The notes beneath the pieces are model-generated. The model saw only the letters and a program-made list of their open reading frames with translations. It was not told where the DNA came from and did not search any database. A DNA stretch of 64,000 nt. Source: Bacillales bacterium UBA4682 (GTDB lineage: Bacteria > Bacillota_I > Bacilli_A > RFN20 > CAG-288). Of this stretch, positions 11,159-55,129 are shown in pieces; within the stretch, counting starts at the first letter, position 1; each line of letters opens with the position of its first letter. The position numbers were made by a program, and so were the translations under genes. The stretch lies in assembly GCA_002404995.1 (NCBI GenBank), contig DHKY01000004.1, positions 122,821 to 186,820 on the forward strand. The letters are read 5' to 3'.

Positions 11159-11225
11159 AGTTCCTCCTCAAAGAAATCCTTTTATTATGATAGCAAATAT
11201 TCCCCTCTTAAAAAAGGCATTCAGC

Positions 11226-13205: not shown

Positions 13206-13280
13206 AGAAACATTATATCAGACAAAAAACTGCTGAAAGAGAAAAGGTTCCTAGCCTTCTGGATAGGAACCCACTGTTTA

Positions 13281-37979: not shown

Positions 37980-39428
37980 TTATTTGACCTCCGTGAATTC
38001 TGTGTTGTTACGGCAGACAATCTGGTAGGAAATCTTGCTGGTGGATTTATGGTAGGAATAGATGCCTTTCAGATTGAAGGTCTTTCCGACAAACTGTTCC
38101 GGAGAGCTATAAGTCGAACCGCTCTCATTGGTGTAAACAAACGGAAGGTAGACAGAGAAGCCAAGCGAATTGCCGAGATTGTTTCGAACAGTGAGAGTCC
38201 AATTGCCACTATCATCCTTATAGGCGCTTTCAACCTGGACAGGATCCTCTACATCCACACGGGAATAGAGATATTCGAAGCTCTGGTTTTCCCTATCGCT
38301 TTGAATCTGGCTTGTCGTCTTTTCAAACGTGTGCGGATAATGCTCAATATCAGTAGGATCATTATTGTCCTCTGCACTGATAATCACCTTTGCATCATCT
38401 TCGCTTTTCGAAGTATACTTGAAGCTTCCGCCAGAGGCCTGGAAGCCGAAGGTTTCACTATCGGTTGCAACACCGCAAACCTGGAGATAAGCACCGGTCT
38501 TTGTGAATTTTGTCGGAATAGCAGACCTTCCAGTATAGAAGTTAAGACCAGCATATTCGCCGTAATCATATTTACCGCCATCCTCTTTAGAGAAATACTC
38601 GGTCAGATAGAGGGTATTGTTTGCATAAGAAGTAACCGTTGCGGTGAAACGGATATTCTTGCCAGCAAACGAATTTGTTCTTGACGGATCTTTGAGGCAA
38701 GCCTCAATTTCGCGCTTGATATCGAGCAAGGAGACATCCTCGTAAGCACCATAATTGAAGAGGGGATCCGGTTGGTCGGAGAACAGATTCAGCTTCAGAT
38801 TACGTGCCTGTTTCTCGGCATCGTAGAAAATCTTGGAAATCTCATCGCCGAGATTCGCGACATTCTTGACGTTAGACCAGCCTTCCTGGACAAGGAGAAG
38901 ATTCAGCATCTCCCTTTCATCCATCGCAGCATTCTTCTTGGAAGTGTTGATCCAGATACAGCAGACATAACGGCTGCCAGTGGAGTCCACCTGCGGAACA
39001 CCATCGGTCAAAGAGTCGGAAGAAATGACAATCGTGCCATTCTGATTGGCTTCTTTGAGCTTCTCAGTCGTGAAGTTGCTGGCACCTTTGCCATATGGCT
39101 GGATTTTTCCAGTCGATTCTGGAGTATCAATACCGAAGAAACGTGCTTTGATGACGGTGCTTTTATCCTGAAGATAGAAATGAGCCGTATCGCCATCAAT
39201 CGGAGTCTTGAGCGTTACCTGTTCGATACCATCGGTCAAGAAGTTCTTGTTCTTGTATTCACGCCTAAGAGGAACCTTGGCAGCATAATCGATTTTTTCT
39301 CCAGTCGGAGTATTTTCACTTGCCGAAGGAGTAGGATTTTCGCTCACTTGATCCGATGGTTTGTTTCCCTGGCAGGATGCCAAGGAGAGAAGCAAGGGAA
39401 GGAGAAGGATTAATTTAAGATTCTTCAT
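37980..39428 (-). CDS. Lipoprotein nuclease with SNase (thermonuclease) domain
   Basis: LLSLASC lipobox. ...DGDTAHFYL...ARFFGIDTPES... SNase catalytic signature. Confidence 0.75.
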   Translation of the reverse strand: MKNLKLILLLPLLLSLASCQGNKPSDQVSENPTPSASENTPTGEKIDYAAKVPLRREYKNKNFLTDGIEQVTLKTPIDGDTAHFYLQDKSTVIKARFFGIDTPESTGKIQPYGKGASNFTTEKLKEANQNGTIVISSDSLTDGVPQVDSTGSRYVCCIWINTSKKNAAMDEREMLNLLLVQEGWSNVKNVANLGDEISKIFYDAEKQARNLKLNLFSDQPDPLFNYGAYEDVSLLDIKREIEACLKDPSRTNSFAGKNIRFTATVTSYANNTLYLTEYFSKEDGGKYDYGEYAGLNFYTGRSAIPTKFTKTGAYLQVCGVATDSETFGFQASGGSFKYTSKSEDDAKVIISAEDNNDPTDIEHYPHTFEKTTSQIQSDRENQSFEYLYSRVDVEDPVQVESAYKDDSGNWTLTVRNNLGNSLGFSVYLPFVYTNESGSTYSSPEQFVGKTFNLKGIYSYHKSTSKISYQIVCRNNTEFTEVK

Positions 39429-39430
39429 AT

Positions 39431-40936
39431 CTACCTCGATAATTTAGTCTGGTTTTCCGCATCGGCGAAAGCACCATCAATGGTTTTCTTGCCCCTCAAT
39501 GCCTGAACCATCAAGCCTTTGACCTCTTCACGGGCCTTTGCAGAGCCTTTGAAGCAAGGGGTATTCAAATAGCTGCCGCTGATTTTGTCTTTGACAACTT
39601 TCTGAACTTCACCAAGTGTCTCGCCTTCGTTGCAGTATTCGATGAATTCTTCGGTCTGATAGCAGGACTCACGGACAGGAGAGTAGCCTTGAGAATAATA
39701 GAGGGCAAGATCAAGGTTGACTGTCGTAGAAGTCAGATATTTAAGGAACTTCCAGGCATACTTGACCTTCCTTCCGTCTTCATCGTCCTTGGTCTTAAGA
39801 AGAGTCAAAGTAACACCCTGGGTAATGTATTTCGGATTGTTGTTGGCATAAGGAACCTTAGCAACACCGACAGTGAAATTATCGCCAGAAGGAATCGTGT
39901 ATCCAGAACCTCCGGACGAACCGATATTGAAGAGGACTTCGCCTGTTTTGAAAAGATCCGATCCGTATTTGTTATCGTTCGTGCCTTTCGTGCAGAAGAC
40001 CTTATTGTCGTAGTCGGCTTTCAAATCTCGAACAAAGGCTTTTGCCTCAGGATTGTTGAATTCGATTTTGCCTTTTCCGTTCTCGATAGAGGTGTAAGGA
40101 ATATTCCGCTGATAGCATTGGGAAATGAAGAAGTTATCATCCGAGTCATAGCAGAAAGGATATTGGAGATTATCTCCAGCCTTTCCTTTATAGCTTCCGT
40201 TTTTGATGTTCTTTGCCACATAACGGCAGAAATTCCTGAACTCATCATAGGATAAGTCATCCCTGAAGGAGAGAAGCTGATCCGAATTCCTGCCAAGATG
40301 TTCATCCTCATTGTATTGGCTGAGAATGCTTGCCGTCAGCTCTTTATTGTAGAAGATAACCTCGGTGGACTTCAGAACCGGAAGAGAATACCTTCCTTCC
40401 CGGATATAATGCTGGCCCTCGTCATAGAAGGCGGGAAGGAAATCCGAGGCCTCGCCATCGCCGATATAGCTTTCCTTGCCAAAACCGATTTTCTCGTCCG
40501 TAGCAAGTTCTGCTAAATTGACGACATATTTTCCAGGGACAGACTCTGCAGCAATATAATCCGCAACATGATCTGGATAAGCGACGGCAATGGTCGGAAA
40601 GTCACCCGTGTTGAAGCCGCTCACAATCTTATTGTGGATATCGGCATAGGATCCTTGGTAGGCATCCTGACCGGCATTGATGGAAATATCAACACCTTCG
40701 TTTTCCTTTACGAGCTTTGCAAACTCATCGGCTTTATTCTGGAATTCATCCTGAAGTCCGGCACCGAAAGTATGCCACCTGTTGATCTGGATGGTTCCTT
40801 TTGAGGGCGTGGTCGTCTGACTGGTTCCGCTTCCGGAAGCAGCTCCGCTAGTAGCGGAGCTATTATTTCCAGAACAGGATACCCTTGAACCCAAAAGGAT
40901 GGGAAGAAGGGCAAGAATCTTGATTTTCTGTTTCAT
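39431..40936 (-). CDS. ABC transporter substrate-binding lipoprotein (family 1 solute-binding)
   Basis: 501 aa with signal peptide and a Cys. Directly upstream of the second SBP and the permease/ATPase genes. Confidence 0.7.
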   Translation of the reverse strand: MKQKIKILALLPILLGSRVSCSGNNSSATSGAASGSGTSQTTTPSKGTIQINRWHTFGAGLQDEFQNKADEFAKLVKENEGVDISINAGQDAYQGSYADIHNKIVSGFNTGDFPTIAVAYPDHVADYIAAESVPGKYVVNLAELATDEKIGFGKESYIGDGEASDFLPAFYDEGQHYIREGRYSLPVLKSTEVIFYNKELTASILSQYNEDEHLGRNSDQLLSFRDDLSYDEFRNFCRYVAKNIKNGSYKGKAGDNLQYPFCYDSDDNFFISQCYQRNIPYTSIENGKGKIEFNNPEAKAFVRDLKADYDNKVFCTKGTNDNKYGSDLFKTGEVLFNIGSSGGSGYTIPSGDNFTVGVAKVPYANNNPKYITQGVTLTLLKTKDDEDGRKVKYAWKFLKYLTSTTVNLDLALYYSQGYSPVRESCYQTEEFIEYCNEGETLGEVQKVVKDKISGSYLNTPCFKGSAKAREEVKGLMVQALRGKKTIDGAFADAENQTKLSR

Positions 40937-40971
40937 CGGAGTTTTCCTTTCAGGCAGAAAGACAGCCTAGA

Positions 40972-42516
40972 TTACTTAACTGCAAGTAAGCAAGCATTGT
41001 AAGCATCATCAAAGAGCTTGCTGAGTTCTTCCTGATATTCTTCGCCAGTCTTCGTGGAGTTGAGAGAGTTGGTAAGAACGCCGGAAACCTGTGTACGGGC
41101 AGTAGAAGAGCCTAAGAAGGCAGGGGAGACGAATAAGGAATTGAGGACCTTCTCATCCGTGGAATAAGTCCTGTTACGGGCTAAAAGCCTGTCTAAGGTA
41201 TTCAGGTCTTTTCCACGGGTAGTGGCAGCTTCCTGATAATCTTCGCTCTCAGTAACGGACTTACGGATGCCCATATAACCAGAGTTGATTGCCCAGTCTA
41301 AGCAGTTCTCTTTATTCGTGATGGTCTTATATAAGAGCCAAGATGCAAGCTTACGGTTCTCATCGTCATGGTCAAGGATGGTCAGAGACGGACCCTGGTT
41401 GATAATGGCAAGGTCTTTTCCTTCGGCATGCGGAATCGGGGCAACGCCGACATCCCTCGGATTGGAGGAAGAGAACTGATATTTGTAACCACCGGTAGAA
41501 CCGACGGAGAAAAGCGTATTCTGAGTGTTGAAATAAGCGTTGGTGTAGTTGTCTCCGGCAATACCCTTAGTAATCAAATATCCCTTCTCTTTGTATTCGT
41601 GGAACTTGGTAAGAAGGGCCATCCTCTTGGTCTTGTTCTCGCCTTCTCCGAAATCGAAGTGTCCTTTGCCGTCCGCACCGATGGAAGTATAGCCAATGCC
41701 ATACTGCTTTGCTAAGGTGATGAAGAGGTTATCATCAGAGTCATAAGCAAAGACAGCGTGATAGGTGTCATCGCTCTTTAAGATCTTCTTGTCATCCGGA
41801 AGCTGAGAATTGTATTTGATTAAGGCCGGGCAGAGCTTATTGAAAAGTTCTTCCCAGGTAAGATTATTGAAATAAGCTTCATCAAGGGATTTTCCACCAT
41901 TGATAGAAGAATCGATGGAATGAAGATCAAGTCCGACTAAGACGCCCTTGTTGTAATACCTGGCTTCAGTGGATTTGCAATACGGAACAGAATAGGTTCC
42001 TTCAACAGCGTAGGCACTTCCCTCTTCTAAGAAGGCAGGATAGATGTCATCCTTATCTTCTTTTGTCCATCCATAGGTGGCGTTGTTGATATAGGGATCA
42101 AGATTGACAGCTTTGCCGTAGTTGATGTACTCAGCAACATGGTCTGGATAGCACTGGACCCTGTCCGGATAATCGCCAGTAGCAAGCTTAGTGACGACAG
42201 CACTCTTTAATTCGTTGTAACCCATACCGGTCTGGATGGTATTGGTAACCGTGACATTCGGTTCAAGCTTCCTGAATTCATCGATATAGCTCTGAAGCTG
42301 GGCCTGGTTGTTCTGTCCAGTGATGGACCATAATTCGATAGTGGTCTTTTCCTTAATCTGCGGAACATACTCGCCGCTCGTATTGGAATTCTGGACATCA
42401 GAAGCAGTAGGAGCCGGTTCTGCACTCGGTTTCACTTCTCCGGAATCGGAAGAACCATTGTTGCATCCAGTAAGAATCAAAGGCAGTAAGAACAGAACAG
42501 ATAATTTCTTTTTCAT
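40972..42516 (-). CDS. ABC transporter substrate-binding lipoprotein (second SBP)
   Basis: LILTGC lipobox. 514 aa. Confidence 0.7.
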   Translation of the reverse strand: MKKKLSVLFLLPLILTGCNNGSSDSGEVKPSAEPAPTASDVQNSNTSGEYVPQIKEKTTIELWSITGQNNQAQLQSYIDEFRKLEPNVTVTNTIQTGMGYNELKSAVVTKLATGDYPDRVQCYPDHVAEYINYGKAVNLDPYINNATYGWTKEDKDDIYPAFLEEGSAYAVEGTYSVPYCKSTEARYYNKGVLVGLDLHSIDSSINGGKSLDEAYFNNLTWEELFNKLCPALIKYNSQLPDDKKILKSDDTYHAVFAYDSDDNLFITLAKQYGIGYTSIGADGKGHFDFGEGENKTKRMALLTKFHEYKEKGYLITKGIAGDNYTNAYFNTQNTLFSVGSTGGYKYQFSSSNPRDVGVAPIPHAEGKDLAIINQGPSLTILDHDDENRKLASWLLYKTITNKENCLDWAINSGYMGIRKSVTESEDYQEAATTRGKDLNTLDRLLARNRTYSTDEKVLNSLFVSPAFLGSSTARTQVSGVLTNSLNSTKTGEEYQEELSKLFDDAYNACLLAVK

Positions 42517-42564
42517 CAGATCAATCCTCCTTTTAATTTATATTGTTTGATCTTGAAGACAGAT

Positions 42565-43545
42565 TTAGCCTTTAATACCAGCACGGCCAACACCGCGCCT
42601 GATATATTTACGGAAAACGACGAAGAGAAGGAACAGAGGAACCGTAACGAATACCGTAGCAGCCATCTGGTATCCATAGCTCGTCCTTCCGGTATCGACA
42701 TCGGTGAACGCCGATCCTCGGAGACCATTGGATATCAAGCGGAAATCAGATTTCGAAGTGACAAGGTTCGGCCAGACATAGGAGTTCCAGGTACCCATGA
42801 ACTTAAGAATCGTAATGGAGATAATGGTAGGAAGTGCAAGAGGGACCCTGACTTTCCATAAGAACGACCAATCGGATTTGCCATCGACTTTGGCAGAGAG
42901 ATAAAGCTCATTCGGAATCTGTTTGAAGTTCTGACGAAGCAAATAGATGTAGAAGACCGAGATCCAGAACGGAACAATCATGGCTAGATAAGCATCCATT
43001 CTTGTCTGTCCGGTTCCCGTCCAGCCAAAGGAAGCGACCGTGATATAGTTGGAAATGACCATCCTCTCGCCAGGAATCATCCTAGTCCTTAGGAATACCC
43101 TGAAGACAGCGTCCCGTCCTTTGAAGTTCAGTCGTGCAAAGGCAAAGGCGCCGAGGATTGTCGTAATCAAAGTACCCAGGGTAGAGAAGACGGCGACAAC
43201 GAGCGTATTGACCAGGTATTTGGAGAAATCGAATTTGTCTAAGGCATAGACATAGTTCGACCACCTGATGATTGTCGGATAGAAGGTCTGCTTGGATGCG
43301 ATGACTTCGCTGTTGGACTTCAGCGAGGTGATGATCCTCCAGTAGAACGGGAAGATCCTCAGCAAGGCTAAGAAACCGATAATGATGTATAGAAGCGTAA
43401 TCGAAGCGATATGTCCGATTTTCTGACGACGGCGGATTGTCTCGACAGTTGCGCCGGATTCCTCTAGGGAGAGCTCGATTTCCGGTTTGACTTTGGATTT
43501 CTCGAAGTTTGGATAAGAAGTCTTTTCAATTGCAGTGTTTTCCAT
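42565..43545 (-). CDS. ABC transporter permease (MalG-like)
   Basis: 6 TM, EAA-like loop ...DAYLAMIVPF... Confidence 0.85.
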   Translation of the reverse strand: MENTAIEKTSYPNFEKSKVKPEIELSLEESGATVETIRRRQKIGHIASITLLYIIIGFLALLRIFPFYWRIITSLKSNSEVIASKQTFYPTIIRWSNYVYALDKFDFSKYLVNTLVVAVFSTLGTLITTILGAFAFARLNFKGRDAVFRVFLRTRMIPGERMVISNYITVASFGWTGTGQTRMDAYLAMIVPFWISVFYIYLLRQNFKQIPNELYLSAKVDGKSDWSFLWKVRVPLALPTIISITILKFMGTWNSYVWPNLVTSKSDFRLISNGLRGSAFTDVDTGRTSYGYQMAATVFVTVPLFLLFVVFRKYIRRGVGRAGIKG

Positions 43546-43559
43546 GATTCAAGACCTCC

Positions 43560-44624
43560 TTAGTAGTGGACCTTCTTCTTACTGACCGCAAGCTGCAAGA
43601 CAGTAAAGACAAGAATGATGACGAAGAGGAAGACAGCAGCGGCTGCTGCATAGGTTACATGGTCGCCGATGTTGTTGTAGATGTAGTAGACGATGGTGTA
43701 CCTGTTATAGCTTCCGCTCGTGGTTCCCGGCCCGTTGAACAAACCGACGATGGCAGTGTATTCCTTGAAGGCACCGATGAAGGAGGTGACGATGATGTAG
43801 AGAATCTGCGGAGACCTTAACGGAACCGTAATCTTCCAAAGAATCTTGGCGGAGCTTGCACCATCGACTTTGGCAGCGTTGTAATACTGCTTATCGATGT
43901 TCTGAAGTCCGGAGAGGAAGATCAGAATCTTAAACGGAAGGGAAGACCAGATGATATAGAAGCAAAGAGGAAGCATGGCGTGAAGACGATCCGCGCCGTA
44001 AATCCAGTTTGTTTCCGTATGGAAGATATAGTTGATGATACCGTTCTTATCGAAGATGACCGCGAAGACCCTACCGATTGCAATAGCGTTGGTGACATAA
44101 GGAAGGAAGAAGACGGTCTGAAGGAATTTCTTGAAGAAGGGCAGAGCATTCAAACCGACACTGATCAATAAGGCAATCAAGGTCGCAAGCGGAACCGTGA
44201 CTAAGACAATAATGAAGGTGTTTGGAATAGCATAGCGGGAGAAATTGACTTCCTGTCCGCCGTTTTCGAGTTTCCTTCCGAAGATAGCACCGAAGTTCTC
44301 CCAAGTGAATCCTTTGTTCGTGCCATCAATCTGGTTGTAGTCTTTCCTAAAGGAAATGGCAATCGTATTAATCAAAGGATAGAGAAGGAAGATGACAAGC
44401 AAGACGATAACCGGAGCAAGATAGAGCCAGCCTTTCCAGTTGTTCTGGCTGGCAACATCTTCGATTCCGGTCACCTTATACGGCTTCTGGTTTTTCTTTT
44501 TTGGCTTGACTAAGCGGATAACGGTATTGTTTCCTTCCTGATAGCCTTCCGAATAATCCGGACGGGCATCGAAGAAATCGTTATGCGCAGTCAGGCTCTT
44601 TTCCTGGCGGAGCGTATCAGGCAT
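43560..44624 (-). CDS. ABC transporter permease (MalF-like)
   Basis: Start ATG at 44624 overlaps the ATPase stop (ATGCCTGA) with GGGAG SD. The track start at 44672 is less likely. ...GASSAKILWKITVP... Confidence 0.8.
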   Translation of the reverse strand: MPDTLRQEKSLTAHNDFFDARPDYSEGYQEGNNTVIRLVKPKKKNQKPYKVTGIEDVASQNNWKGWLYLAPVIVLLVIFLLYPLINTIAISFRKDYNQIDGTNKGFTWENFGAIFGRKLENGGQEVNFSRYAIPNTFIIVLVTVPLATLIALLISVGLNALPFFKKFLQTVFFLPYVTNAIAIGRVFAVIFDKNGIINYIFHTETNWIYGADRLHAMLPLCFYIIWSSLPFKILIFLSGLQNIDKQYYNAAKVDGASSAKILWKITVPLRSPQILYIIVTSFIGAFKEYTAIVGLFNGPGTTSGSYNRYTIVYYIYNNIGDHVTYAAAAAVFLFVIILVFTVLQLAVSKKKVHY

Positions 44625-46593
44625 TTTCGCTCTCCCATTCCCTAGGAATCCGTTCCTCGGTTGTCTTATCAAAGATGAAACACTTGTTCGGTTTCACCTT
44701 GAAGAAGCAATCCTGATTGACTTTGGCTTCGCTTGGAACAATAGCTTTGAAGGTTTCCTTCGTACAGCTTGGATTCTTAGCCACAACGAATAAGTCACGT
44801 CCTAAGACCTGCCTCATCTCCATCTTAGCGGAGAAGCCAAGTCCTTCTTTGTTTTCTAAGGAAATCCTTCCTTCCGGACGGATAGCAATCGTGACATCCT
44901 GATCCTTGACTTCGTTCTTGAAGGAAAGAATCTTTTCGTCTCCGATATAAACGCCGTGGTCATGGACCTTGCCAGAAAAGACGTTGATCGGCGGATTTCC
45001 TAAGAACTGAGCAACAAACAGGTTGACTGGAGAATTATAGACATCCTGCGGAGCACCGATCTGCTGTTCTTCGCCGTTTTTCCTGACAACGATCCTATCG
45101 CAGATGGACCTTGCCTCTTCCTGGTCATGGGTAACGAAGACCATGGTGATTCCGGTTTCGCGCTGGATACGCTTGATTTCCTCACGGGTCTGGAGACGTA
45201 AACGGGCATCCAAGTTGGAGAGCGGCTCATCGAGAAGAAGCCTCTTCGGTTTCTTGACCAGAGCACGGGCAATGGCAACACGCTGCTGCTGACCGCCGGA
45301 GAGCTGACTCGGCTTACGGTCTAAGTATTCGTCGACCTGGACAAGCTTTGCCGTCTCATAGACAATCTCTGCACGTTCGGATTTCGTAAGAGAACGATGG
45401 GTGATTGCTGTCTTCCTTTCGGTCTTGACATCATTCAAGCCAAGAGAAGAGGTCAGGAATTCGACTCCTTCCTTGCTTTGTTCTTCCGTGGTATGGACAA
45501 GAATGAGGAAGATATAAAGCTGTTCATCCTGATAGTAAAGCTTCAGATCCGAGAAACGGAACCCTTTCTGGCGAAGGGACTTCTTAATCGAAGAAGTGAA
45601 TTTCTGGTCATTGACAGAGGTGATTGAGAAACTAGTGCTAGCAAAAGCAACGGCCGAGGAAATCTTGTCTTCCCTTTCCTTGCGCTTAGAAGAAAGCCTA
45701 TTGGTAATACGGGCGATGAGCTCGTATCCGCTCTTGGCTTTCCTGATGGAGACAGCCTCGACATGTCCGTAGTCTTTTCCGATATTGCGGATTGCCTTGA
45801 TTGTGTCATCCCTCTTATCGGTAGTGAAATCACGGGGAAGCTTGCCTAAGAAGTTCAAAGAAATCTTCTCAAGTTCAAGCCTCTGGGTAACCTTGGCGCG
45901 GATTTTGGTATCATACAGGGCTTCGCTAGACTGGACTTCTTTCTCATCCGTCTTTGTCCTAGGAATGACTTCGCAGACATGGGATGTGAAGAGCTCTTTC
46001 AGCTCACGTGCGACATTCTTCAGATGGAAGTTCAGAACGAGTTCTTTACCTTCATAATCCGAAGAAACATTCTTGTCTTTCCTCTTTGAAACATCGTTTC
46101 CATCCAGATTCCTTTCCAGGACGAAATTCTTCTTGGTGAAGCCGATACGTTTGGCAAGAGAGAAGAAAGACTCCCGGATACCTTCGACATGGTCTTTCTT
46201 TGTCCTCTTATAGGAATAAGACAAATCAAAATCGAAGAAGGTAACAAGCGGAACCTCGACCTTCAGATTCGTAAGCGGGAATTCGATATTTTTGAAGATG
46301 GTCCTATGCGGATAAAGAGCATAGTTCTGGAAAACCAAACCGATACCGCGCTTTTCCGGAGACAAGTTCGTGACTTCCTGGTCACCGAACCAGACTTCAC
46401 CGGAAGTCGGCTTCTGCAATCCGGAAATCCTGTATAAGGTCGTAGACTTACCACAGCCGGAAGGACCAAGGAGTCCTACAAGCTTTCCATCCGGAACAAC
46501 GAAATCGAGGTTATTCACGGCAATCGTATCGTGAATGTTCTTTTTCGCATTTCCGGCAAAGATTTTCGTCAGATTCTTGAGTTTGATTTCCAT
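44617..46593 (-). CDS. ABC transporter ATP-binding protein (MalK/UgpC-like) with ~300-aa insertion in the helical subdomain
   Basis: Walker A GPSGCGKST, Q-loop VFQNYALYPH, then ~300 K/E-rich residues before LSGGQQQRVAIARAL, Walker B LLLDEPLSNLD, H-loop VTHDQ, C-terminal TOBE-like domain. Confidence 0.85.
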   Translation of the reverse strand: MEIKLKNLTKIFAGNAKKNIHDTIAVNNLDFVVPDGKLVGLLGPSGCGKSTTLYRISGLQKPTSGEVWFGDQEVTNLSPEKRGIGLVFQNYALYPHRTIFKNIEFPLTNLKVEVPLVTFFDFDLSYSYKRTKKDHVEGIRESFFSLAKRIGFTKKNFVLERNLDGNDVSKRKDKNVSSDYEGKELVLNFHLKNVARELKELFTSHVCEVIPRTKTDEKEVQSSEALYDTKIRAKVTQRLELEKISLNFLGKLPRDFTTDKRDDTIKAIRNIGKDYGHVEAVSIRKAKSGYELIARITNRLSSKRKEREDKISSAVAFASTSFSITSVNDQKFTSSIKKSLRQKGFRFSDLKLYYQDEQLYIFLILVHTTEEQSKEGVEFLTSSLGLNDVKTERKTAITHRSLTKSERAEIVYETAKLVQVDEYLDRKPSQLSGGQQQRVAIARALVKKPKRLLLDEPLSNLDARLRLQTREEIKRIQRETGITMVFVTHDQEEARSICDRIVVRKNGEEQQIGAPQDVYNSPVNLFVAQFLGNPPINVFSGKVHDHGVYIGDEKILSFKNEVKDQDVTIAIRPEGRISLENKEGLGFSAKMEMRQVLGRDLFVVAKNPSCTKETFKAIVPSEAKVNQDCFFKVKPNKCFIFDKTTEERIPREWESENA

Positions 46594-46603
46594 AATCTAT
46601 CTC

Positions 46604-48112
46604 CTATTTCGTTCCGTCATCGCTTGACCTGTCGTCCAGTTTCAGTCTTTCCTTCTCCTTTCGCTGCTTCCAATTCTTGAAGGCAGTGATACCGGATTTG
46701 ATGAAGAATCCGATAGCGAAGATAGAAAGGATAGAAAGAACAACAATGAAGTTATCGACAGGGTTATAAACCGTCATCGTATTATTGAACTGGTTTCCAC
46801 GAAGTATGATGAAGAAGATATCGAAGAGGAAGACGCCGAGAGAAGCAGAGATGAGGATGGAGCGAAGGAGGAAGCGTTTGTTATTGACGCGTCGGAATTC
46901 ATCATTGCGGAACTTTTTCTTCTCATAGAAGAAGAGTCCTGTAGCAAGTCCGCCGAAGACGACAAGATAGAGAACAATAGACAGGATCGTAATCCTAGTG
47001 AAGTTATGTTCCTTGATGTCGTTCCTCTCATGTTTCAGAGGATTGCCGGAATAGAAGGTAAGACGTCCGATACGGGCCTTGTACTCGGTAGATGTAATAT
47101 CCTTTTCCGAAGAAGTATAGCGGAGTTTCCTCGAGAAGCCGATGTGAGCCAAAGAGAAGTACTCGATTTCCCCCTCTGGAAGATCCTTGAACAGGATGCA
47201 GTATTTCTGCTTTCCGTTCTTAAGAAGCATCGTAGAGCCAAGCGAACCTTCCCTTGCGCTCCGTTCCACAGTCTCGCCGTTCTTTAACGTAATCTGGAAC
47301 ACCGCGTCTTTCAATGAAGGAATGGTATCGTAGAAGTAGACTTCTCCACTCTCAATCTTTGATTTCCATTTCTTATAAGCAGAGGCTTTCAGCTCTCCGT
47401 ACCGGCTTTCCCTGTCGTTCGTAATTGTCAGGGAAAATGCGGCATATTTTCCAAATGTGGAGATTTCCTCGATGGAACCATAAAGGTTTTCGCTCAATTC
47501 CACATTGTTTTTAGCAGCGCCTTCAATCGTAGTTTTCTGTCCATCGTAGTAGTATTTCTTGTCCAGGACAGGAACAAAGCCTTTGCTTTGACGTTCCGCA
47601 AGATAAATATTGAAGTATTTCAAAGTCGAGCGATTGATCGTCTCCCCTTCTTTCTTAGGAAGATCAATATCAATCCTCAAGGTGCGGGCACCGATATTGT
47701 ATCCAATACCATCGTAAGGGTTGTTTTCAGAAACTTTGCGGCAGCTCGTTTCACGCCTTTCCGTACTCTTTCCGTCTTCTAAGACAACCTGGTACTGGAC
47801 AACCAAAGGAAGATACCTATCGCCTTCGCCATAGTATCCGAAAATGAAATCCAGAGAGGACGTGTTGGTTTCGAACTCAACATGGTAAGACTGAGAAGAA
47901 GCAGTCGAACTCGAAATCGTCCTGTAGGATACCAGTGTCGAATCGATAGTATCTGCTCTTTCCCTCCCTGCATTCGAGTGGAGGTTTTCCGTCACTGTAT
48001 TCAGGAGAGGTCCTTTCACAGAACTTTTTGTCCGGTTAGGAACAGTAAACGACACTAACGAAAAAGCCAATGGCAGAACCAATGTGGATAGTAAAACGTC
48101 TTTTGCTTTCAT
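46604..48112 (-). CDS. Secreted/membrane-anchored hypothetical protein (signal peptide, large ecto-domain, 3 C-terminal TM)
   Basis: 502 aa with AGGAG SD. First gene behind its own promoter, ahead of the ABC genes. Confidence 0.55.
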   Translation of the reverse strand: MKAKDVLLSTLVLPLAFSLVSFTVPNRTKSSVKGPLLNTVTENLHSNAGRERADTIDSTLVSYRTISSSTASSQSYHVEFETNTSSLDFIFGYYGEGDRYLPLVVQYQVVLEDGKSTERRETSCRKVSENNPYDGIGYNIGARTLRIDIDLPKKEGETINRSTLKYFNIYLAERQSKGFVPVLDKKYYYDGQKTTIEGAAKNNVELSENLYGSIEEISTFGKYAAFSLTITNDRESRYGELKASAYKKWKSKIESGEVYFYDTIPSLKDAVFQITLKNGETVERSAREGSLGSTMLLKNGKQKYCILFKDLPEGEIEYFSLAHIGFSRKLRYTSSEKDITSTEYKARIGRLTFYSGNPLKHERNDIKEHNFTRITILSIVLYLVVFGGLATGLFFYEKKKFRNDEFRRVNNKRFLLRSILISASLGVFLFDIFFIILRGNQFNNTMTVYNPVDNFIVVLSILSIFAIGFFIKSGITAFKNWKQRKEKERLKLDDRSSDDGTK

Positions 48113-48164
48113 CGAATGTATCTCCTAACTTGATTTTTATTGAAAGAAGGTCTCATCTCTAGTT

Positions 48165-48193
48165 AATTATAGCCCAAAATATCGCCTGTCTCA
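48165..48193 (-). promoter_or_regulatory. Sigma-A promoter for the 46604-48112 / ABC operon
   Basis: Minus strand TTGAGA, 17-nt spacer, TATAAT. Confidence 0.6.
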
Positions 48194-48207
48194 ACGCTAA
48201 AAACGAT

Positions 48208-49269
48208 TTATTCATCGAGTCTATCCGGTGCAACAAACGAAGCAGAAACTTTCTTTCCGGAGGAATGAGCCCTGGTAGCTTCCGCAAGCGAATAGTAAAT
48301 TGGTTCAATAGAATCATCGATTTCGTAAAGTCCGAGCCTGTATTCGCCGAAATCCTGTCGGTTCTTTGTGAAGGCAAGCCTGGAGATGTCGATGATCAAA
48401 GGAAGGCCAAAGGTAAGAAAGGAAAGAGAGATGATTGCAAACCTGCGGATAAATCCATAGGCAAGATATCTCCCCGTCCGGACATGAAGAAGCGAATGTT
48501 CTGTCAGTCCGATTTTGTAAATCAGCCTGCCGATTGTCTTTCTGCTCCGCTTCCTGATAAGACAAGGAAGCCTGTAAGTCAGAAACGAAGCAAGGACCAC
48601 TGCGATAGGAAGCTCAAGTGCAATCCTGTAGATGCTCTCTGAGTGAATGTCCTTCTGGTACTGAGGAAAATAGTTGTAAAGGATTTTATTGGCTTCGACA
48701 TCGAAATAGTCTTCATAGACTTTGTTATAGTCCGCCCATTTGGCCTGGCATTCCTTGTTTTCGGAAATCTGATTGTCCGATAGAACAAACCTTGGAATAT
48801 CGTTGAAATTGGCTTTTAGAAGATAGGAGTCAAATCCCGTCTTAATTTCATTGTATTCATTCTCAGAGAGCTTTTCCTTGCAATAGGAGAAAAACGTGTA
48901 GAGTCCTTCCTGATAGGACTTCTTTTTCCCAAATTCCGTGACATCGGAATTGTCTTTATAATAAGAGACAAGATCAATGTCCTTCCCGTTTCTGGTCCTA
49001 TAAACACCGCTATCCGTCTTATGAAGATGGATTCTTTCTTCCCTGTTTTTATAGCTCGGAGTAGTCTGGACAATCGAACGGGCAGTAAAGAAAAAGAGGA
49101 CGCCTAAAGCAACACAGATAAATAAATCAATGATTCTAGCCATGACCCGCTTAGTCCTATCTGCGCGGTGGTATTTGATGTTGACCTTCGGAGTCTCTTG
49201 TTGAATCGGTTTTGGATTCCTGTTATCCATTTTATTGCTTGCTCCTTGGTAATTGTTCATAGTCGGCAC
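48208..49269 (-). CDS. RDD-family-like membrane protein, paralog B (start likely ATG at 49230)
   Basis: RVMARIIDLFICVALGVLFF and ...IRKRSRKTIGRLIYKIGL... An ATG at 49230 sits 1 nt after the upstream gene's stop with AAGGAG upstream. An alternative start at 49269 overlaps the upstream gene. Confidence 0.6.
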   Translation of the reverse strand: MPTMNNYQGASNKMDNRNPKPIQQETPKVNIKYHRADRTKRVMARIIDLFICVALGVLFFFTARSIVQTTPSYKNREERIHLHKTDSGVYRTRNGKDIDLVSYYKDNSDVTEFGKKKSYQEGLYTFFSYCKEKLSENEYNEIKTGFDSYLLKANFNDIPRFVLSDNQISENKECQAKWADYNKVYEDYFDVEANKILYNYFPQYQKDIHSESIYRIALELPIAVVLASFLTYRLPCLIRKRSRKTIGRLIYKIGLTEHSLLHVRTGRYLAYGFIRRFAIISLSFLTFGLPLIIDISRLAFTKNRQDFGEYRLGLYEIDDSIEPIYYSLAEATRAHSSGKKVSASFVAPDRLDE

Positions 49270-50308
49270 TGGATATCAGCACGGATGAGGACAGCCAATC
49301 GGAGAAGGAACGGTTGAGGGAATTAATCAGAAGGAAAACCAGAGAGACGAGATCTAAGGCAAGTCCAGAGAGACTGACAGATAAAGTAGGGAAAGAGAAA
49401 AGCTGGGTGAAAGGAATATAGAAGCAAGGAAGGAAAATCAGATAAGGCAGCGTAAAGAGCCTATTGAGGATAAAGCTGTAGCATCGTTTTCCGCGTGAAA
49501 GAGTTCGGAATCCATTCACATTGATTCGGTCGGTCTTCCTCGCCATCCTGCCAAGTGTCTTTCCCCGCTTATGGATCATGGGAACAAGGAGGAAGCAGAT
49601 AACAGAAGAAAGAAGAAAAGAAAGAATCGAGCAGATTACGACTGAATAATTGAAATTCTTCTGGCCCTGTTTCCTTTTTCCGTCTGCACTTTGGAAAGCA
49701 GTGAAAAAGGGGCCTTGGTTTTCTTCGCTTTCCCTATCCTTCAGCCTGTTTCCGTACCTCCTGGCAAAAAAGCTGTTCTTGAAGTAGGTGAGATCCGTCT
49801 TGCCTTTCTCGGTCAGTTCGTCCTTTTCGTCTAAGAGCGGAAGGAATTCCTCTCGGTATTTCTCTTTCCTTTTCCTTTTATCCCCATCTGGTTCGAAGAA
49901 CACGTTCGAACTGGTGTGATTATAGATATCCTGCAAGCCTTCCATCGTTATCTTCTTGATACCAATATAGTAGTTCTTGAAATAATCGTTGCTTCCGTCA
50001 CTCAGTTGCCCTTTCAGGAAAAGAAGCGAAGAGTATTCCCTAATCAAAGAAGTATCATCGTTCTCCATCTCATCCGTCTTCGAAAGAAGGCCAGAGGAAA
50101 AAAGAAGATTCCTCTTCTCATCCTGTCCTTCTTTTTCAATCCGCTGTGCTTCCTTGACTGCTGGAACCATCTTGCTGATTGGATAACAGCAGAGAGAGAA
50201 AAGAGAAAGTCCTACAATAAAGGCAATAAAGAAATCGGCAAGAAAAACAAGAATACGGCGGCATTTTCCAAGCGGTGAAAGATCAATATAGTTTGTAGTT
50301 TTTTCCAT
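49232..50308 (-). CDS. RDD-family-like membrane protein, paralog A
   Basis: GKCRRILVFLADFFIAFIVG, long K/E-rich loop, ...IHKRGKTLGRMARKTDRINVNG..., C-terminal TMs. Its ATG abuts the stop of the SIR2-like gene (TAAATG). Confidence 0.6.
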   Translation of the reverse strand: MEKTTNYIDLSPLGKCRRILVFLADFFIAFIVGLSLFSLCCYPISKMVPAVKEAQRIEKEGQDEKRNLLFSSGLLSKTDEMENDDTSLIREYSSLLFLKGQLSDGSNDYFKNYYIGIKKITMEGLQDIYNHTSSNVFFEPDGDKRKRKEKYREEFLPLLDEKDELTEKGKTDLTYFKNSFFARRYGNRLKDRESEENQGPFFTAFQSADGKRKQGQKNFNYSVVICSILSFLLSSVICFLLVPMIHKRGKTLGRMARKTDRINVNGFRTLSRGKRCYSFILNRLFTLPYLIFLPCFYIPFTQLFSFPTLSVSLSGLALDLVSLVFLLINSLNRSFSDWLSSSVLISSADYEQLPRSKQ

Positions 50309-51613
50309 TTAAAGTTTCGAGAGATAGACTCCAATCTCACTATAATCATCAACCCAGATCACAATCAAATCAAAAGTAAAGAAATAGCTCGTCAGGTTCC
50401 GGTAAACCGAGGTAGAATACCCGTTTTCCTTCTTCAGGAAAATGAAATTGAATTTCAGGTAGTTCCGTGCAAGTTCCAGAATTCGTTTCCTGTCGGGATC
50501 CGTAAGAGAAATACCGATAAACAGACAGGCATTGAATTTAAAATCATGAAGTTGCTTCGCGATATTCCAGGAATAAGGATTATTGTACAGATAATAGTAA
50601 TCCGATTCCGTGAAGACAAGAGAATCCGTGTACCGCTTTTCTTTGCTTTTCCCGTACGGAAGCAATCCATGCACGTGATAAATATCGACCTTGGCTTCTT
50701 TATCCACAAACGAGTTCTCATCGTAGACAACCGTATAGCGAACATCCTTTTTCTTCAGCAGATATTCGAGATTCGTGTCATAGTTATAGGTAATAACACT
50801 CGTCTGCCGGTGCTTGGAAAGATATTCGTAGCAATGATAAAGAGTCGATTCCTCATTATCAAAAGTGAATTCATTGTCATAAGAATAGAGTTCATTATCA
50901 AGACAACGATAAAAGTCAAATCCGGAAGTCTTCCTGATCCTAGGAGAAGTAAAGAGTTCTTCGCCTACATAATGATGAATCTGGTCCGCGAACCGGGAAT
51001 CCCCTTGATAGAAATCCGTATTCAAGGATTCCATGAGCGAATTCCAGCTTTTTCCACCATAGTCTTCATTGATTCCGGCGCCGATAACAAGATCCACATG
51101 CAGTTTGCAGGTATAAAGCTTCCTAAGCCAGAGAATGAACGTTTCAGCAGAATCGTTCTTACCATGGAAATTATTATCCGAATCAAGGTGATAAAGAATA
51201 TCATCCGTAATCGATTCTTTTTTCTGACGGAAGCGAAGGGAAACCTTCTCTCCCTCCCTATAACCCGTTGCAAAGAACTCACGGCCATCGAAATAGATGT
51301 TCCTGGAAGCCTCTGGTTCATAAAACTCGCCTTCCCGCACAGAAGGAACTTTTACAATATTCCTATTGCCCATGACATCTAGTTTCCTGTAGTTGAAGCG
51401 TGCCCTGGTATCGTAGATATGAATCACGTATTTATGAACATGATCCTTCTTCGAATAGACAATCGCTTTAAAATTGCAGGTCGGGTCAAAGGAAAAACCA
51501 AAGGATCGAAGAATCACATGATCAAAAGGGACATTCTTAAAATAAAACCTGAACAGAGAAAGAAGAAGTCCCTTTTTTCGATAGATATAATAATCCCGTT
51601 CCTGTTTTTCCAT
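50309..51613 (-). CDS. SIR2_2-family (SIR2-like) protein with uncharacterised ~170-aa N-terminal domain
   Basis: Motifs read from the translation: LHVDLVIGAGINEDYGGKSWNSL, SVITYNYDTNLEYLL, DIYHVHGLLPYG, ACLFIGISLTDPDRKRILE. This is the canonical GAG..., TxNYD, HxHG, GxSxxD order of SIR2_2 (PF13289-like). Confidence 0.65.
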   Translation of the reverse strand: MEKQERDYYIYRKKGLLLSLFRFYFKNVPFDHVILRSFGFSFDPTCNFKAIVYSKKDHVHKYVIHIYDTRARFNYRKLDVMGNRNIVKVPSVREGEFYEPEASRNIYFDGREFFATGYREGEKVSLRFRQKKESITDDILYHLDSDNNFHGKNDSAETFILWLRKLYTCKLHVDLVIGAGINEDYGGKSWNSLMESLNTDFYQGDSRFADQIHHYVGEELFTSPRIRKTSGFDFYRCLDNELYSYDNEFTFDNEESTLYHCYEYLSKHRQTSVITYNYDTNLEYLLKKKDVRYTVVYDENSFVDKEAKVDIYHVHGLLPYGKSKEKRYTDSLVFTESDYYYLYNNPYSWNIAKQLHDFKFNACLFIGISLTDPDRKRILELARNYLKFNFIFLKKENGYSTSVYRNLTSYFFTFDLIVIWVDDYSEIGVYLSKL

Positions 51614-51670
51614 AAAATACCTGTCTGATTAATATACCATAATCTAGCGTTTTTTTGAGTAAAAGCACCT

Positions 51671-51712
51671 TTTTTAATAAAAAAGAGACTATGGTTTCCC
51701 ATAGTCTCTATT
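51671..51712 (-). terminator. Rho-independent terminator of tuf
   Basis: agagactatgg-tttc-ccatagtctct followed by TTTTTTATT on the minus strand. Confidence 0.7.
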
Positions 51713-51734
51713 GAATCGTTAGAGAGAAAACGAA

Positions 51735-52925
51735 CTAGTCGATGATCTCAGTGACGGTGCCGGCACCAACGGTGTGGCCGCCTTCACGGATAGAGAACTT
51801 CGTGTTGTTTTCGATAGCGATCGGGTGGATAAGCTCGACGGTTAACTCAACGTTATCGCCAGGCCTGACCATCTGGACATCAGCAGGAAGAGTGACGGTT
51901 CCAGTGACATCGGTGGTACGGAAGTAGAACTGAGGACGATAGTTGTTGGTGAAAGCAGTATGACGTCCGCCTTCTTCTTTCTTTAAGACGTAAACCTTGC
52001 CTTTGAACTTCTTGTGCGGAGTGACAGAGCCCGGTTTGCAGATAACCTGACCACGGACAATCTGATCACGATCGACACCACGGAGTAAAGCACCGATGTT
52101 GTCGCCGGCTTCAGCGAAGTCAAGGATCTTGCGGAACCTCTCAAGAGAGGTAACAACGCATTTACGGGTATCTAAGATACCGACGATTTCGACTTCATCG
52201 TTCGGATGTAACCTACCACGTTCGACACGGCCAGTAGCAACAGTACCACGGCCAGTGATGGTCCTGACATCCTCAACAGCCCTTAAGAACGGTTTTTCGT
52301 TATCACGGACCGGAAGCGGGATGTACTTGTCGCAGGCATTCCTTAATTCCCTGATGGACTCTTCAGCTTTGACATCGCCATTTAAGGCCTGTAAAGCAGA
52401 TCCACGGATGACCGGAAGTTCTTCTCCCGGATATCCATACTTGGAAAGAAGATCACGGACATCCATTTCGACTAAGTCGATTAATTCCGGATCATCAACC
52501 TGATCGCACTTGTTAAGGAAGACAACGATGTAAGGAACACCGACCTGACGGGCAAGTAAAACGTGCTCGCGGGTCTGCGGCCTGACACCATCGGTAGCAG
52601 CGACGACAAGGATAGCACCATCCATCTGAGCAGCACCAGTGATCCTGTTCTTGATGTAGTCGGCGTGGCCAGGGCAGTCAACGTGGGTGTAGTGACGGGA
52701 TTCAGTATCGTATTCGACGTGAGCAGCATTGATGGTGACACCACGGGCTTTCTCTTCCGGAGCAGCATCAATCTGATCATAGTTCAGAGCTTTGGATAAG
52801 CCCTTCTTTGCAAGAACGTGGGTGATAGCGGCGGTTAAAGTGGTCTTGCCGTGGTCGACGTGGCCGATCGTGCCGATGTTAACGTTCGGACGGGAACGGT
52901 CGAACTTCTGTTTAGCTTCAGCCAT
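51735..52925 (-). CDS. tuf: Elongation factor Tu
   Basis: [35 protein letters not shown]... Confidence 0.99.
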
Positions 52926-52999
52926 TATAAATTTCCTCCAAATAGATTCTTAATGACTATACACTTTTTCTACTATATTTTCAAGAATGCAGAGTGCAA

Positions 53000-55129
53000 T
53001 TAACTGCGTTTCTTGATGATTTCGTCCTGGACAGAACGAGGGACCTGCTGATAGTGATCAAAGGTCATTGTATAGATACCACGGCCCTGAGTCCTGGAAC
53101 GAAGGTCGGAGATGTAGCCGAACCTGTTGGCTAACGGAATGAAGGCAGTGATAACCTGGGCATTGGCCTTCTGGACCATGCCATCGACCTGACCACGACG
53201 AGAGGCAACATCGCCCATGACGGTACCGACATAGTCAAGCGGAGTAGTGATATCTGCTTTGACAATCGGTTCAAGGATGACCGGAGAGCACTTCTGTGCT
53301 GCAACACGGAGAGCCTGAGCAGAAGCAAGCTTATAAGCAGCTTCGCTGGAGTCGACATCATGGTAAGAACCATCGAACAGCGTTGCCTTGACATCAATGA
53401 CAGGATAGCCAGCGACCATACCTTTTTCGAAGGCTTCCTTCAAACCATCGAGAGACGGTTTGATGAATTCCTTAGGAATGGCACCACCGGTGATAGCTTC
53501 ATCGATTTCAATACCCTTTCCAGGGTTCGGTTCCATCTTGAAGACAACATGACCATACTGACCATGACCGCCAGACTGCTTGATGTACTTACCTTCGCAG
53601 TTGGCTTCCTGGGTGATGGTCTCACGATAAGCGACCTGAGGTGCACCGACGCGGGTTTCGATTCCGAAGTCGTTCTTCAGACGGGTAACGTTGACATCGA
53701 GCTGAAGTTCGCCGACGCCAGCGATGATACCCTGTCCGGTTTCGCTATCGGTATAGTAATGGAAGGTCGGATCTTCTTCAGTGAACTTAATCAGAGTAGC
53801 GGACCTCTTATCCTGATCAGCACGTTTGACAGGCTCGATAGCCTCGGAGATAACCGGTTCAGCGAACTGGATGGCTTCGAGAGAGACCTGCGGATCGTTC
53901 TCGCCGACAAGAGTATCACCAGTACGGGTGTTAGCGAAGCCGACAGCGGCTGCGATTTCACCGGCACGGGCTTCGGTGATGTTCTCGTGAGAATCAGCGT
54001 TGACTAATTCAAGACGGGAGACACGTTCCTTGGTTCCCTTGCGAACATTGTAGACATAAGAACCGGATTTGACAGTTCCAGAGTAAACACGGAAGAAGCA
54101 AAGGGTTCCAAACTGGTCAGTCGTAAGCTTGAAGGCAAGAGCAACGAACGGTCCGTTCGGATCGGGGTTGAACTTGACTTCTTCGCCGTTCTTGCCGGTA
54201 GCAACCGGGGCAGGAACATCGAGCGGGGACGGGAGATAATCCCGGACTGCATCGAGAACGTACTGAACGCCCTTGTTCTTATAAGCAGAGCCAGGCCTGC
54301 AGGGGAAGATTTCACGGGCAATCGTTTCCTTGCGGATAGCGGCCTTGATTTCTTCAACAGATGGCTCTTCTTCCCTGAGGACTTTTTCCCTGATAGCATC
54401 ATCGAAGTTGGCGAGCTGCTCAATCATGGTCTGATGATAAAGCTTGGCTTTTTCGACATCTTCAGCATATTCAGCAGGAACTTCCTCGAGCGGAACAATC
54501 TTCGGCTGCCTGGATTCAGACTTCTTAGCATCAAGATCCCATAACCAGGCTTTCCTTTCGACCAAGTCGATTAAGCCGAGTAAACGGGTTTCGAGTCCAA
54601 CCGGATAAGCGATGGCGACACCATTTGCACCAACACGTTCCTTGACAGAGGCAACAGACCTTTCATAGTCTGCACCAGTGGCATCGAGCTTATTGACGAA
54701 AACAATACGCGGAACATCATACTTATCAGCCTGACGCCAGACGGTTTCCGTCTGCGGTTCAACACCGTTCTTTCCATCGAGGACGCAGACAGCGCCATCG
54801 AGAACACGGAGAGAACGTTCGACTTCAGCGGTAAAGTCGACATGGCCAGGAGTATCAATTAAGTTGATACGATAGCCTTTCCAGATACAGGTCGTAGCAG
54901 CAGAGTAAATCGTGATACCACGTTTCTGTTCCTGTTCATTGAAGTCCATGGCGGAAGCACCATCATGGGTTTCGCCGATTTTATGGGTTTTTCCTGTGAA
55001 GAAGAGAATACGTTCACTCGTCGTAGTCTTACCAGCATCAATATGGGCCCTGATGCCGATGTTACGGACATGGTCGAGGGCGACCGATTCGTATACGGAT
55101 ACCCTCGCCTGATCGTTATCCATTGCCAT
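53000..55129 (-). CDS. fusA: Elongation factor G
   Basis: ...[20 protein letters not shown]..., 709 aa. Confidence 0.98.

Follow-up and report, generated by a model that had tools for sequence, protein, structure and literature searches.

In the window analyzed here, 64,000 nucleotides of contig DHKY01000004.1 (assembly GCA_002404995.1, positions 122,821 to 186,820 of the forward strand) from Bacillales bacterium UBA4682, a gene for a 434-amino-acid (aa) SIR2-like protein is followed by two genes for RDD-family membrane proteins (A and B) and lies between tuf and genes for an ATP-binding cassette (ABC) importer. Comparisons among genomes indicate that the SIR2 gene is a vertically inherited, strongly constrained chromosomal gene of the order-level RFN20 lineage. 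The best explanation, to which we assign a probability of about 0.4, is that it encodes a lineage-fixed switch of immune ancestry that depletes NAD+ (nicotinamide adenine dinucleotide) or arrests growth; this was ranked slightly ahead of an exapted housekeeping enzyme. SIR2 NADases of the defense class are regarded as sporadic, mobile, and subject to fast turnover. The member described here behaves like a core gene in over 100 species of a gut lineage that is uncultured and genome-reduced, and either an abortive-infection-type effector was fixed unusually deep or the fold was exapted for a housekeeping reaction.

Full-length homologs (about 434 aa) of the SIR2-like protein formed more than 200 clusters at 90% identity, and the full-length gene was found in at least 116 species-level genomes, with 52 to 92% identity. 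The family as a whole corresponded to about one 50% cluster among 1.84 billion representatives. Reliably named carriers were uncultured Bacilli (Enterosoma, Onthovivens, 'Enteromonas', CAG:288, and UBA bins), with UBA7642, CAG-288, Enterosoma, and Onthovivens as the RFN20 types that carry the gene; the closest relatives of the window were the metagenome-assembled genomes HGM10888 and UBA784. No record had an EF-Tu sequence exactly matching that of the window, and look-ups with its SIR2 and 502-aa proteins led to just a few contigs, the same ones each time. The order SIR2-RDD-RDD-(502-aa)-ABC, in which 502-aa denotes a further membrane protein gene, was widespread, often with fusA-tuf directly upstream. 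Distances between SIR2 proteins followed those of tuf plus fusA across 21 taxa (Spearman 0.87; Mantel r 0.81, 0/999). Mean p-distances were 0.12 for tuf, 0.17 for fusA, 0.30 for SIR2, and 0.37 for the ABC ATPase; the RDD proteins and the 502-aa protein had values of about 0.67. With L003, the closest relative, as reference, the nonsynonymous divergence (dN) of SIR2, 0.043, was the lowest in the cluster, versus 0.06 to 0.22 for its neighbors, in a comparison made without tuf and fusA and confined to dN because synonymous sites were saturated even between closest relatives, so that no dN/dS ratio could be given. Among 2.9 million viral contigs none carried a relative; the matches in phage and plasmid records were partial and limited to the SIR2 core. 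For one well-sampled Enterosoma species the index listed an identical 435-aa SIR2 protein in 224 assembly blocks, and the gene order in each of the 10 contexts shown (24 contigs were read) was pgk-tpi-...-rpsL-rpsG-fusA-tuf-SIR2-RDD-RDD-ABC; the neighboring proteins varied slightly while the SIR2 protein remained identical.

Several records outside the reliably named set had the Bacilli locus under foreign names. These were 'cleanbin' records (L007, L012, L014, L028, L039, L054, L079, L080, and others) labeled as Alistipes onderdonkii, Bacteroides uniformis, Roseburia hominis, Parasutterella, or Slackia. Because they carry the Bacilli locus, with fusA and tuf 84 to 91% identical to those of the window where present, such bins are evidently mislabeled or contaminated.

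The genetic code of this lineage affects how the proteins are read. In this genome AGG is read as Met, not Arg. In tuf, fusA, rpsL, and the ABC ATPase gene, AGG codons coincided with Met residues that are conserved universally (KN[M]ITGAAQM, [M]PQTREH, VE[M]FRK, NIGI[M]AHIDAGK, and YPH[M]T), AGA codons were nearly unused in the window genes checked, and homologs in other species had M or L where the table 11 translation of the window has R, for example in TDPDMKR. A clade with AGG-to-Met recoding has already been published (GTDB UBA7642/CAG-288/RFN20; PMC8629427). The first-pass annotation of this DNA had relied on the table 11 translation and missed the recoding, which introduced false Arg residues at 36 positions of the trio (10 in SIR2, 13 in RDD-A, and 13 in RDD-B). 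Three of the motif strings that it quoted contain a misread AGG and are correctly FIGISLTDPDMKRILE, KRGKTLGMMAMKTDRI, and KRSRKTIGMLIYKIGL; the Arg that it noted before the first transmembrane (TM) segment of the membrane proteins is genuine and specified by non-AGG codons. Family searches were run with AGG-to-Met-corrected sequences, and the AlphaFold2 (AF2) model was built with the table 11 translation as row 1 of the alignment. The recoding is a practical hazard, as standard-code annotation mistranslates these genomes and their public protein records carry false Arg residues.

The 434-aa protein was assigned to SIR2_2, as first proposed from its motif order, by a match to PF13289 over aa 272 to 384 (56.3 bits versus a curated Pfam cutoff of 24.5), an annotation that is also precomputed on its homologs. 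Foldseek comparison of the AF2 model (predicted local distance difference test [pLDDT] score of 79; predicted template modeling [pTM] score of 0.80) retrieved BcThsA (6e-11) and then KomC/HAM-SIR2, DSR2, human FAM118B, and SIR2-HerA (E of 7e-8 or better), all with probability 1.00. These results indicate that the modeled C-terminal part adopts a Rossmann-type SIR2 fold of the ThsA/DSR2/KomC class. Searches of PDB by sequence gave nothing better than an E of 0.44 with the whole protein and of 0.34 with the SIR2 domain alone (8zsi, the only SIR2 chain found by sequence), besides chance hemagglutinin matches. PADLOC returned only weak ThsA (4.7e-7) and generic SIR2 matches, and NCBIfam and PHROGs added nothing. 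A hydrophobic stretch at aa 15 to 25 was considered as a membrane anchor and rejected, being too short and modeled as a packed helix.

Several sites in the SIR2 domain were invariant in all 45 aligned sequences: GAGIN (aa 178 to 182), N277 (in ITYNYDTNLE), H315 (in HVHG), and a loop at aa 335 to 349. GISLTDPDMKR was a further invariant motif. The GAGIN, N277, and H315 motifs align with their counterparts in a SIR2 protein from Klebsiella discussed below, and from motif position we take N277 and H315 to be the equivalents of ThsA N112 and H152. The invariant loop (window positions ~50567 to 50611) reads ESDYYYLYNNPYSW, the same segment as ESDYYYLYNNPYSWN; the Klebsiella relative has a similar segment, EEGYHHIYSDSYHWSN. 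It is the sole part of the AF2 model with a pLDDT below 50 and is probably a mobile active-site or partner-binding loop. Because every characterized member of the structural class that was retrieved cleaves NAD+, the 434-aa protein, which has catalytic-type residues, would be expected to cleave NAD+ as well.

The N-terminal ~170 aa, which the first-pass annotation could not recognize, appear to form a compact alpha/beta domain private to this family. The domain had no match in Pfam, NCBIfam, PADLOC, or PHROG. An exhaustive HMMER profile scan of the 1.84 billion representatives gave 11 matches and no relative outside the family; these were family members, their fragments, and one DUF3011 repeat protein, which was rejected as a chance match. 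Its conservation is at the level of many enzymes (mean column identity of 62%), with K13, K49, H60, K61, D79, N85, N105, and E120 invariant. Foldseek comparison of the domain with PDB gave nothing significant, and the signal of a restriction-endonuclease-like fold is weak. The candidate PD-(D/E)xK residues would be D109...E120-x-K, in which E120 is invariant and D109 is conserved at 90% or more; the Lys is shifted or absent in some sequences (EGEK, EGVK, EGAA).

The nearest relative of the SIR2 domain outside the lineage was a 504-aa protein annotated as 'SIR2 family protein', WP_032434307.1, encoded on Klebsiella pneumoniae plasmid NZ_CP129856.1 (490535 to 492049; L083). The alignment with hhalign covered the whole domain (aa 165 to 434; 99.3% probability; E = 1e-20), and the two proteins share VITYN[YF]D, YHVHG[LF]LP, and SLTDP..RLL. 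The Klebsiella protein also has an N-terminal extension, of about 180 aa, and its gene is surrounded by antirestriction, RadC, YeeU, DUF932, and WYL genes. Because the SIR2 domains align, the N-terminal regions are unalignable, and these surroundings are of a defense type, the window protein belongs to a modular class that combines variable N-terminal domains with SIR2 and whose other members resemble mobile defense genes. The Klebsiella gene adjoins genes for a 1424-aa hypothetical protein and a DEAD/DEAH helicase, its product had only weak ThsA and LmuA-SIR2 matches in PADLOC, and its locus may represent an undescribed defense system.

The best structural match, Thoeris ThsA (PDB 8bto, 6lhx, and 8wc0), aligned with the C-terminal ~280 to 300 aa, shares the motif order G-A-G, T-x-N-Y-D, H-G, and was also the best PADLOC match. 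However, ThsA is a SIR2-SLOG NADase, whereas the window protein lacks a SLOG or Macro domain, ends with SIR2, and has its unrelated extra domain at the N terminus; there is no TIR (ThsB) gene among the neighbors (tuf, two RDD genes, the 502-aa gene, and ABC genes); sequence similarity is negligible; and the window gene is fixed in its lineage, in contrast to the sporadic ThsA. DSR1 and DSR2, like the Klebsiella protein, resemble the window protein in joining a sensor-like extra domain to SIR2 in modular fashion, but DSR proteins are ~1000 aa long with large C-terminal sensors, and both they and the Klebsiella gene occur in mobile or defense contexts rather than at a core chromosomal position. 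KomC/HAM-SIR2 of Kongming (PDB 9xvc, 8zsi, and 8zsf) and SIR2-HerA (8wld) are of the same SIR2 class, with target-normalized TM-scores of at most 0.70, but their HAM1/deaminase or HerA partners are absent near the window gene. Neither the protein nor its neighbors contained a large sensor domain, HerA, pAgo, or STAND, the features of DSR1/DSR2, SIR2-HerA, SPARSA, and Avs5. The vertebrate proteins FAM118A and FAM118B (PDB 9r0p) have a SIR2_2-class fold and exemplify a defense-type sirtuin that became a vertically inherited, lineage-wide gene (PMC12700824); they differ from the window protein in being eukaryotic and in having neither such an N-terminal domain nor membrane partners.

The two membrane genes were confirmed as RDD-like paralogs. 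Proteins A and B scored 29.6 and 35.1 bits, respectively, with the Pfam RDD model PF06271 (cutoff, 24.1), which is also precomputed on their homologs; PADLOC had no match for either. Pairwise BLASTP between A and B reached only E = 0.013, whereas profile-profile comparison of the A and B series from 68 species pairs gave 99.9% probability and E = 2e-34 at 14% identity. The RDD genes always occurred as an A and a B series. The deep divergence of the two series argues for an ancient duplication that has been maintained as a pair, and because the pair is always kept as A plus B, a heterodimer is suggested. When RDD-like relatives were sought beyond the lineage by a profile search, the reach of which was limited by its word index, only 15 matches were returned, all family members.

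By hydropathy, protein A (358 aa) has TM1 at aa 19 to 37, a putative extracytoplasmic loop at ~38 to 222, and TM2 to TM4 within 223 to 331, and its basic cytoplasmic loop carries KRGKTLGMM; protein B (340 aa) has TM1 at 29 to 47, a loop at ~48 to 200, and TM2 and TM3 within 205 to 282, and carries KRSRKTIGM. Together with the positive-inside rule, these features suggest for both a cytoplasmic N terminus, a TM1 with Asp, an external loop of 150 to 185 aa, TM2, a basic cytoplasmic loop, and one or two more TM segments. The Asp in TM1 (D35 in protein B) is invariant, both proteins have the cytoplasmic-loop motif G-(K/Q)-T-(L/I)-G-M, and R228, T232, and G234 of that motif are conserved. The Arg before TM1, present in the proteins of the window, is not fully conserved across the B series. 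Both the Asp in TM1 and the loop motif are shared with the RDD family as represented by SppI/YteJ of B. subtilis and the RDD protein of Halobacillus andaensis. In contrast to canonical RDD proteins, which have about 130 to 200 aa and short loops, those of the window have the long loop between TM1 and TM2 and occur in A/B pairs. Roles described for RDD proteins are inhibition of the protease SppA by SppI (PMC7568657) and a claimed Na+/H+ antiport (PMC5996927); Aravind and colleagues consider the role unknown and describe an intramembrane site facing the cytoplasm (PMC12419801). No SppA-like gene is adjacent in the window.

RDD genes were also found in other arrangements. L068 and L076 have five tandem RDD-like copies downstream of the SIR2 gene (9300 to 14850), and L045, L047, L049, and L055 have a second, inverted A/B pair 6 to 8 kb upstream of it (250 to 2460). 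These expansions suggest a diversifying family of surface proteins.

The tight coupling of SIR2 to two RDD genes first noted in the window proved to be common elsewhere: RDD genes were adjacent to the SIR2 gene in 61 of 76 informative species loci. The first-pass proposal would have fallen had the genes never been found side by side in other genomes, which is not the case. They lay directly downstream on the same strand in 54 loci, downstream but inverted in 5, and divergently upstream in 2, and the remaining 15 had no RDD gene within 2.8 kb. In the same-strand loci a median of 53 nt separated the SIR2 stop from the codon at which TM1 of the following gene begins, with 120 nt or less in 49 of 51, so the intergenic space is essentially nil. 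The pair still followed SIR2 where the ABC genes are upstream (L046, L050, L052, L054, L057, L061, L062, and L065), whereas in L026 and L029 it went with the ABC genes on the opposite strand. The 15 species without linkage kept all invariant SIR2 residues; in these the SIR2 gene neighbored malQ/rimO-like or psuG/psuK-like genes or stood directly before ABC genes. SIR2 and RDD genes are thus often and closely linked, but the linkage is not obligate. Searching the literature for the two together returned plant epigenetics papers only.

The most likely mechanism starts from a soluble two-domain enzyme in which the private N-terminal domain is joined to a SIR2 domain with the GAGIN NAD loop and catalytic-type N277 and H315. 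Its gene descends from the modular defense SIR2 class, of which one gene, with a private N-terminal domain, became fixed in RFN20. The N-terminal domain may keep the SIR2 domain inactive until a conserved signal inside the cell, which the RDD pair may relay from the membrane, triggers SIR2 assembly and then NAD+ hydrolysis. It is further conceivable, though unlikely, that an RDD heteropair whose external loops evolve fast and whose cytoplasmic face is conserved serves as the input device of the SIR2 NADase, the entire unit having become fixed as a set of core genes in this order. This would provide the first functional partner for the widespread, enigmatic RDD domain and, in addition, the first bacterial immune-type SIR2 to be retained by vertical descent so deeply, a prokaryotic counterpart of fixed NADases such as FAM118 or those resembling SARM1.

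Several points weigh against a lineage-fixed switch of immune ancestry. Since the SIR2 gene has no RDD genes beside it in 15 of 76 species, the RDD pair is either dispensable or need not be linked to SIR2. None of the known sensor partners (TIR, HerA, pAgo, and STAND) is nearby. Streamlined genomes also show tight spacing and long-lived synteny of unrelated genes. Order-level vertical retention fits a housekeeping gene at least as well, because defense genes are normally patchy with fast turnover and conservation here is vertical and transporter-like.

A tentative alternative, which we take seriously, is therefore a housekeeping NAD-dependent enzyme without any role in immunity: an exapted SIR2 protein with a routine cellular task, such as ADP-ribosylation or deacylation of a conserved protein or nucleic acid, or regulated NAD turnover, with the N-terminal domain binding the substrate. 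Vertical inheritance across an order-level clade, with a mean distance lower than that of the ABC ATPase, the lowest dN of the cluster, and a protein identical over hundreds of assemblies of one species would all be expected of such an enzyme, and this evolutionary behavior is a strong argument in its favor. The well-conserved N-terminal domain, with its many invariant polar residues, does not resemble phage-sensing domains; the gene has a plain promoter that lacks a regulator box; and it is retained where RDD genes are not adjacent. FAM118A/B provide a precedent for vertically inherited SIR2_2-like proteins (PMC12700824). However, the characterized members of the structural class that were retrieved are all NADase effectors or NAD-processing filament formers, the nearest relative resides in a mobile or defense context, and no candidate substrate gene is consistently linked. 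We also know of no housekeeping role for a bacterial SIR2_2 protein, which counts against this alternative.

Somewhat less probable, but still plausible, is functional independence of the SIR2 gene from the RDD pair, in which case they would be adjacent as a result of compact, slowly rearranging genomes in which the RDD, 502-aa, and ABC genes form a surface or transport set. The unlinked species, the two loci in which the pair sits with the ABC genes on the opposite strand, and the pairs that are away from SIR2 or expanded would all be consistent with independence, as would the strongly different rates (0.30 versus about 0.67) and the synteny of the entire fusA-tuf-...-ABC region. Yet RDD-A lies directly behind the SIR2 stop, with essentially no spacer, in 54 species, and the pair often stays with SIR2 on rearrangement, as in the eight loci with upstream ABC genes. 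The frequent junctions of the translational-coupling type with an RDD heteropair offer a testable handle on the function of the RDD domain.

The first-pass annotation had regarded the trio as a small accessory insertion between core genes. The trio has a G+C content of 0.40 to 0.44, slightly below that of tuf and fusA, and an Arg codon usage unlike theirs, but both differences recur in the 502-aa and ABC genes and are compatible with low expression, so they are not evidence of foreign origin. A recently acquired defense island between tuf and the ABC locus is very improbable and is refuted by synteny and phylogenetic congruence: although the SIR2 class is typical of defense systems, synteny of the locus extends over dozens of species and the arrangement does not vary within one, descent is vertical (Mantel r 0.81), no integrase, repeats, or mobile genes were found near the trio, and viral contigs lack relatives while phage and plasmid matches are limited to the SIR2 core.

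The genes of the trio were annotated as three tightly packed open reading frames (ORFs) in the same direction, with their coordinates as first called (Table 1). At the junction of the SIR2 gene and RDD-A, CTT TAA ATG GAA, the TAA stop abuts the ATG (TAAATG), as had been reported. The third gene had been placed 1 nt from, or overlapping, the stop of RDD-A, with a length of 353 aa. The 1-nt spacing held and the length did not: the mechanical ORF begins with GTG at 49269, and the ATG at 49230, which gives 340 aa, is preferred because it is 1 nt past the RDD-A TAA stop, has AAGGAG 11 nt upstream, and agrees with public gene calls on identical contigs.

The SIR2-like gene is probably transcribed from a promoter of its own, with a short leader, downstream of the tuf terminator, which had correctly been placed upstream of the trio. 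The -10-like sequence TATGGTATAGTAAT is also present upstream of the SIR2 gene in species locus L005, and -10-like boxes occur 20 to 35 nt before the SIR2 ATG in most species loci. No regulator box was found upstream of the SIR2 gene in 74 loci, just -10-like elements and terminator T-runs, and no Rfam element was found within 46000 to 53000. No terminator was found downstream of the trio; a near-consensus promoter there bears out the proposal that the ABC locus is separately promoted.

Table 1. Genes, domains, and candidate signals of the SIR2-RDD region (window positions)
Feature	Positions	Strand	Basis or remarks
SIR2-like protein gene, 434 aa	50309-51613	-	ORF list; Pfam SIR2_2 (5e-15); homologs; AF2 model
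N-terminal domain, aa 1-~170	51104-51613	-	Long helix, six- or seven-stranded beta region, two helices (model)
SIR2 (Rossmann-type) domain, aa ~171-434	50309-51103	-	Foldseek; invariant columns; hhalign
RDD-family membrane protein A gene, 358 aa	49232-50308	-	Pfam RDD; hydropathy; A-series orthologs in 68 loci
RDD-family membrane protein B gene, 340 aa from ATG at 49230	48208-49230	-	Pfam RDD; start choice; B-series orthologs
Candidate extended -10-like element TGGTATATT	51631-51639	-	18 nt upstream of SIR2 ATG; consensus match only; no good -35
Intrinsic terminator of tuf	51684-51709	-	11-bp stem with 5 GC pairs, T-run; separates str-operon genes from SIR2-like gene
tuf	51735-52925	-	Context gene upstream of trio
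fusA	53000-55129	-	Context gene upstream of trio
Candidate sigma-70-type promoter, TTGAGA-17-TATAAT, near-consensus	48166-48194	-	11/12 matches; consensus match only; before 502-aa and ABC genes
502-aa membrane protein gene	46604-48112	-	Directly before ABC ATPase gene; syntenic with trio in many species
CUT1-type sugar ABC importer genes	39431-46593	-	Pfam ABC_tran, BPD_transp_1 (two), SBP_bac_8 (two)

The ABC importer genes encode two permeases, two lipoprotein binding proteins, and an ATPase that contains a large internal insert. The ATPase (44617 to 46593, minus strand) has 658 aa, and an insert of ~290 aa splits its ABC domain so that the Pfam match falls in two stretches; the Enterosoma ortholog has 522 aa. 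The long form co-occurs with a 502-aa gene directly upstream, and loci without the 502-aa gene match residues ~400 to 650 only. The 502-aa gene is absent in the well-sampled Enterosoma species, in which the RDD pair abuts the ABC genes. By hydropathy, the 502-aa protein has a signal anchor, an external part of ~345 aa, and three C-terminal TM segments; searches of Pfam, NCBIfam, and PADLOC assigned it to no family. It could serve the importer as an accessory subunit.

Two lipoprotein genes on the minus strand lie downstream of those for the ABC binding proteins. The product of one (37980 to 39428) is a 482-aa lipoprotein bearing a staphylococcal-nuclease (SNase) domain, and that of the other (34558 to 37452) is a 964-aa lipoprotein with Big_2 and OB-fold domains. 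Together they look like a surface pair for nuclease activity and nucleic acid binding, comparable to scavenging of the Mollicutes type.

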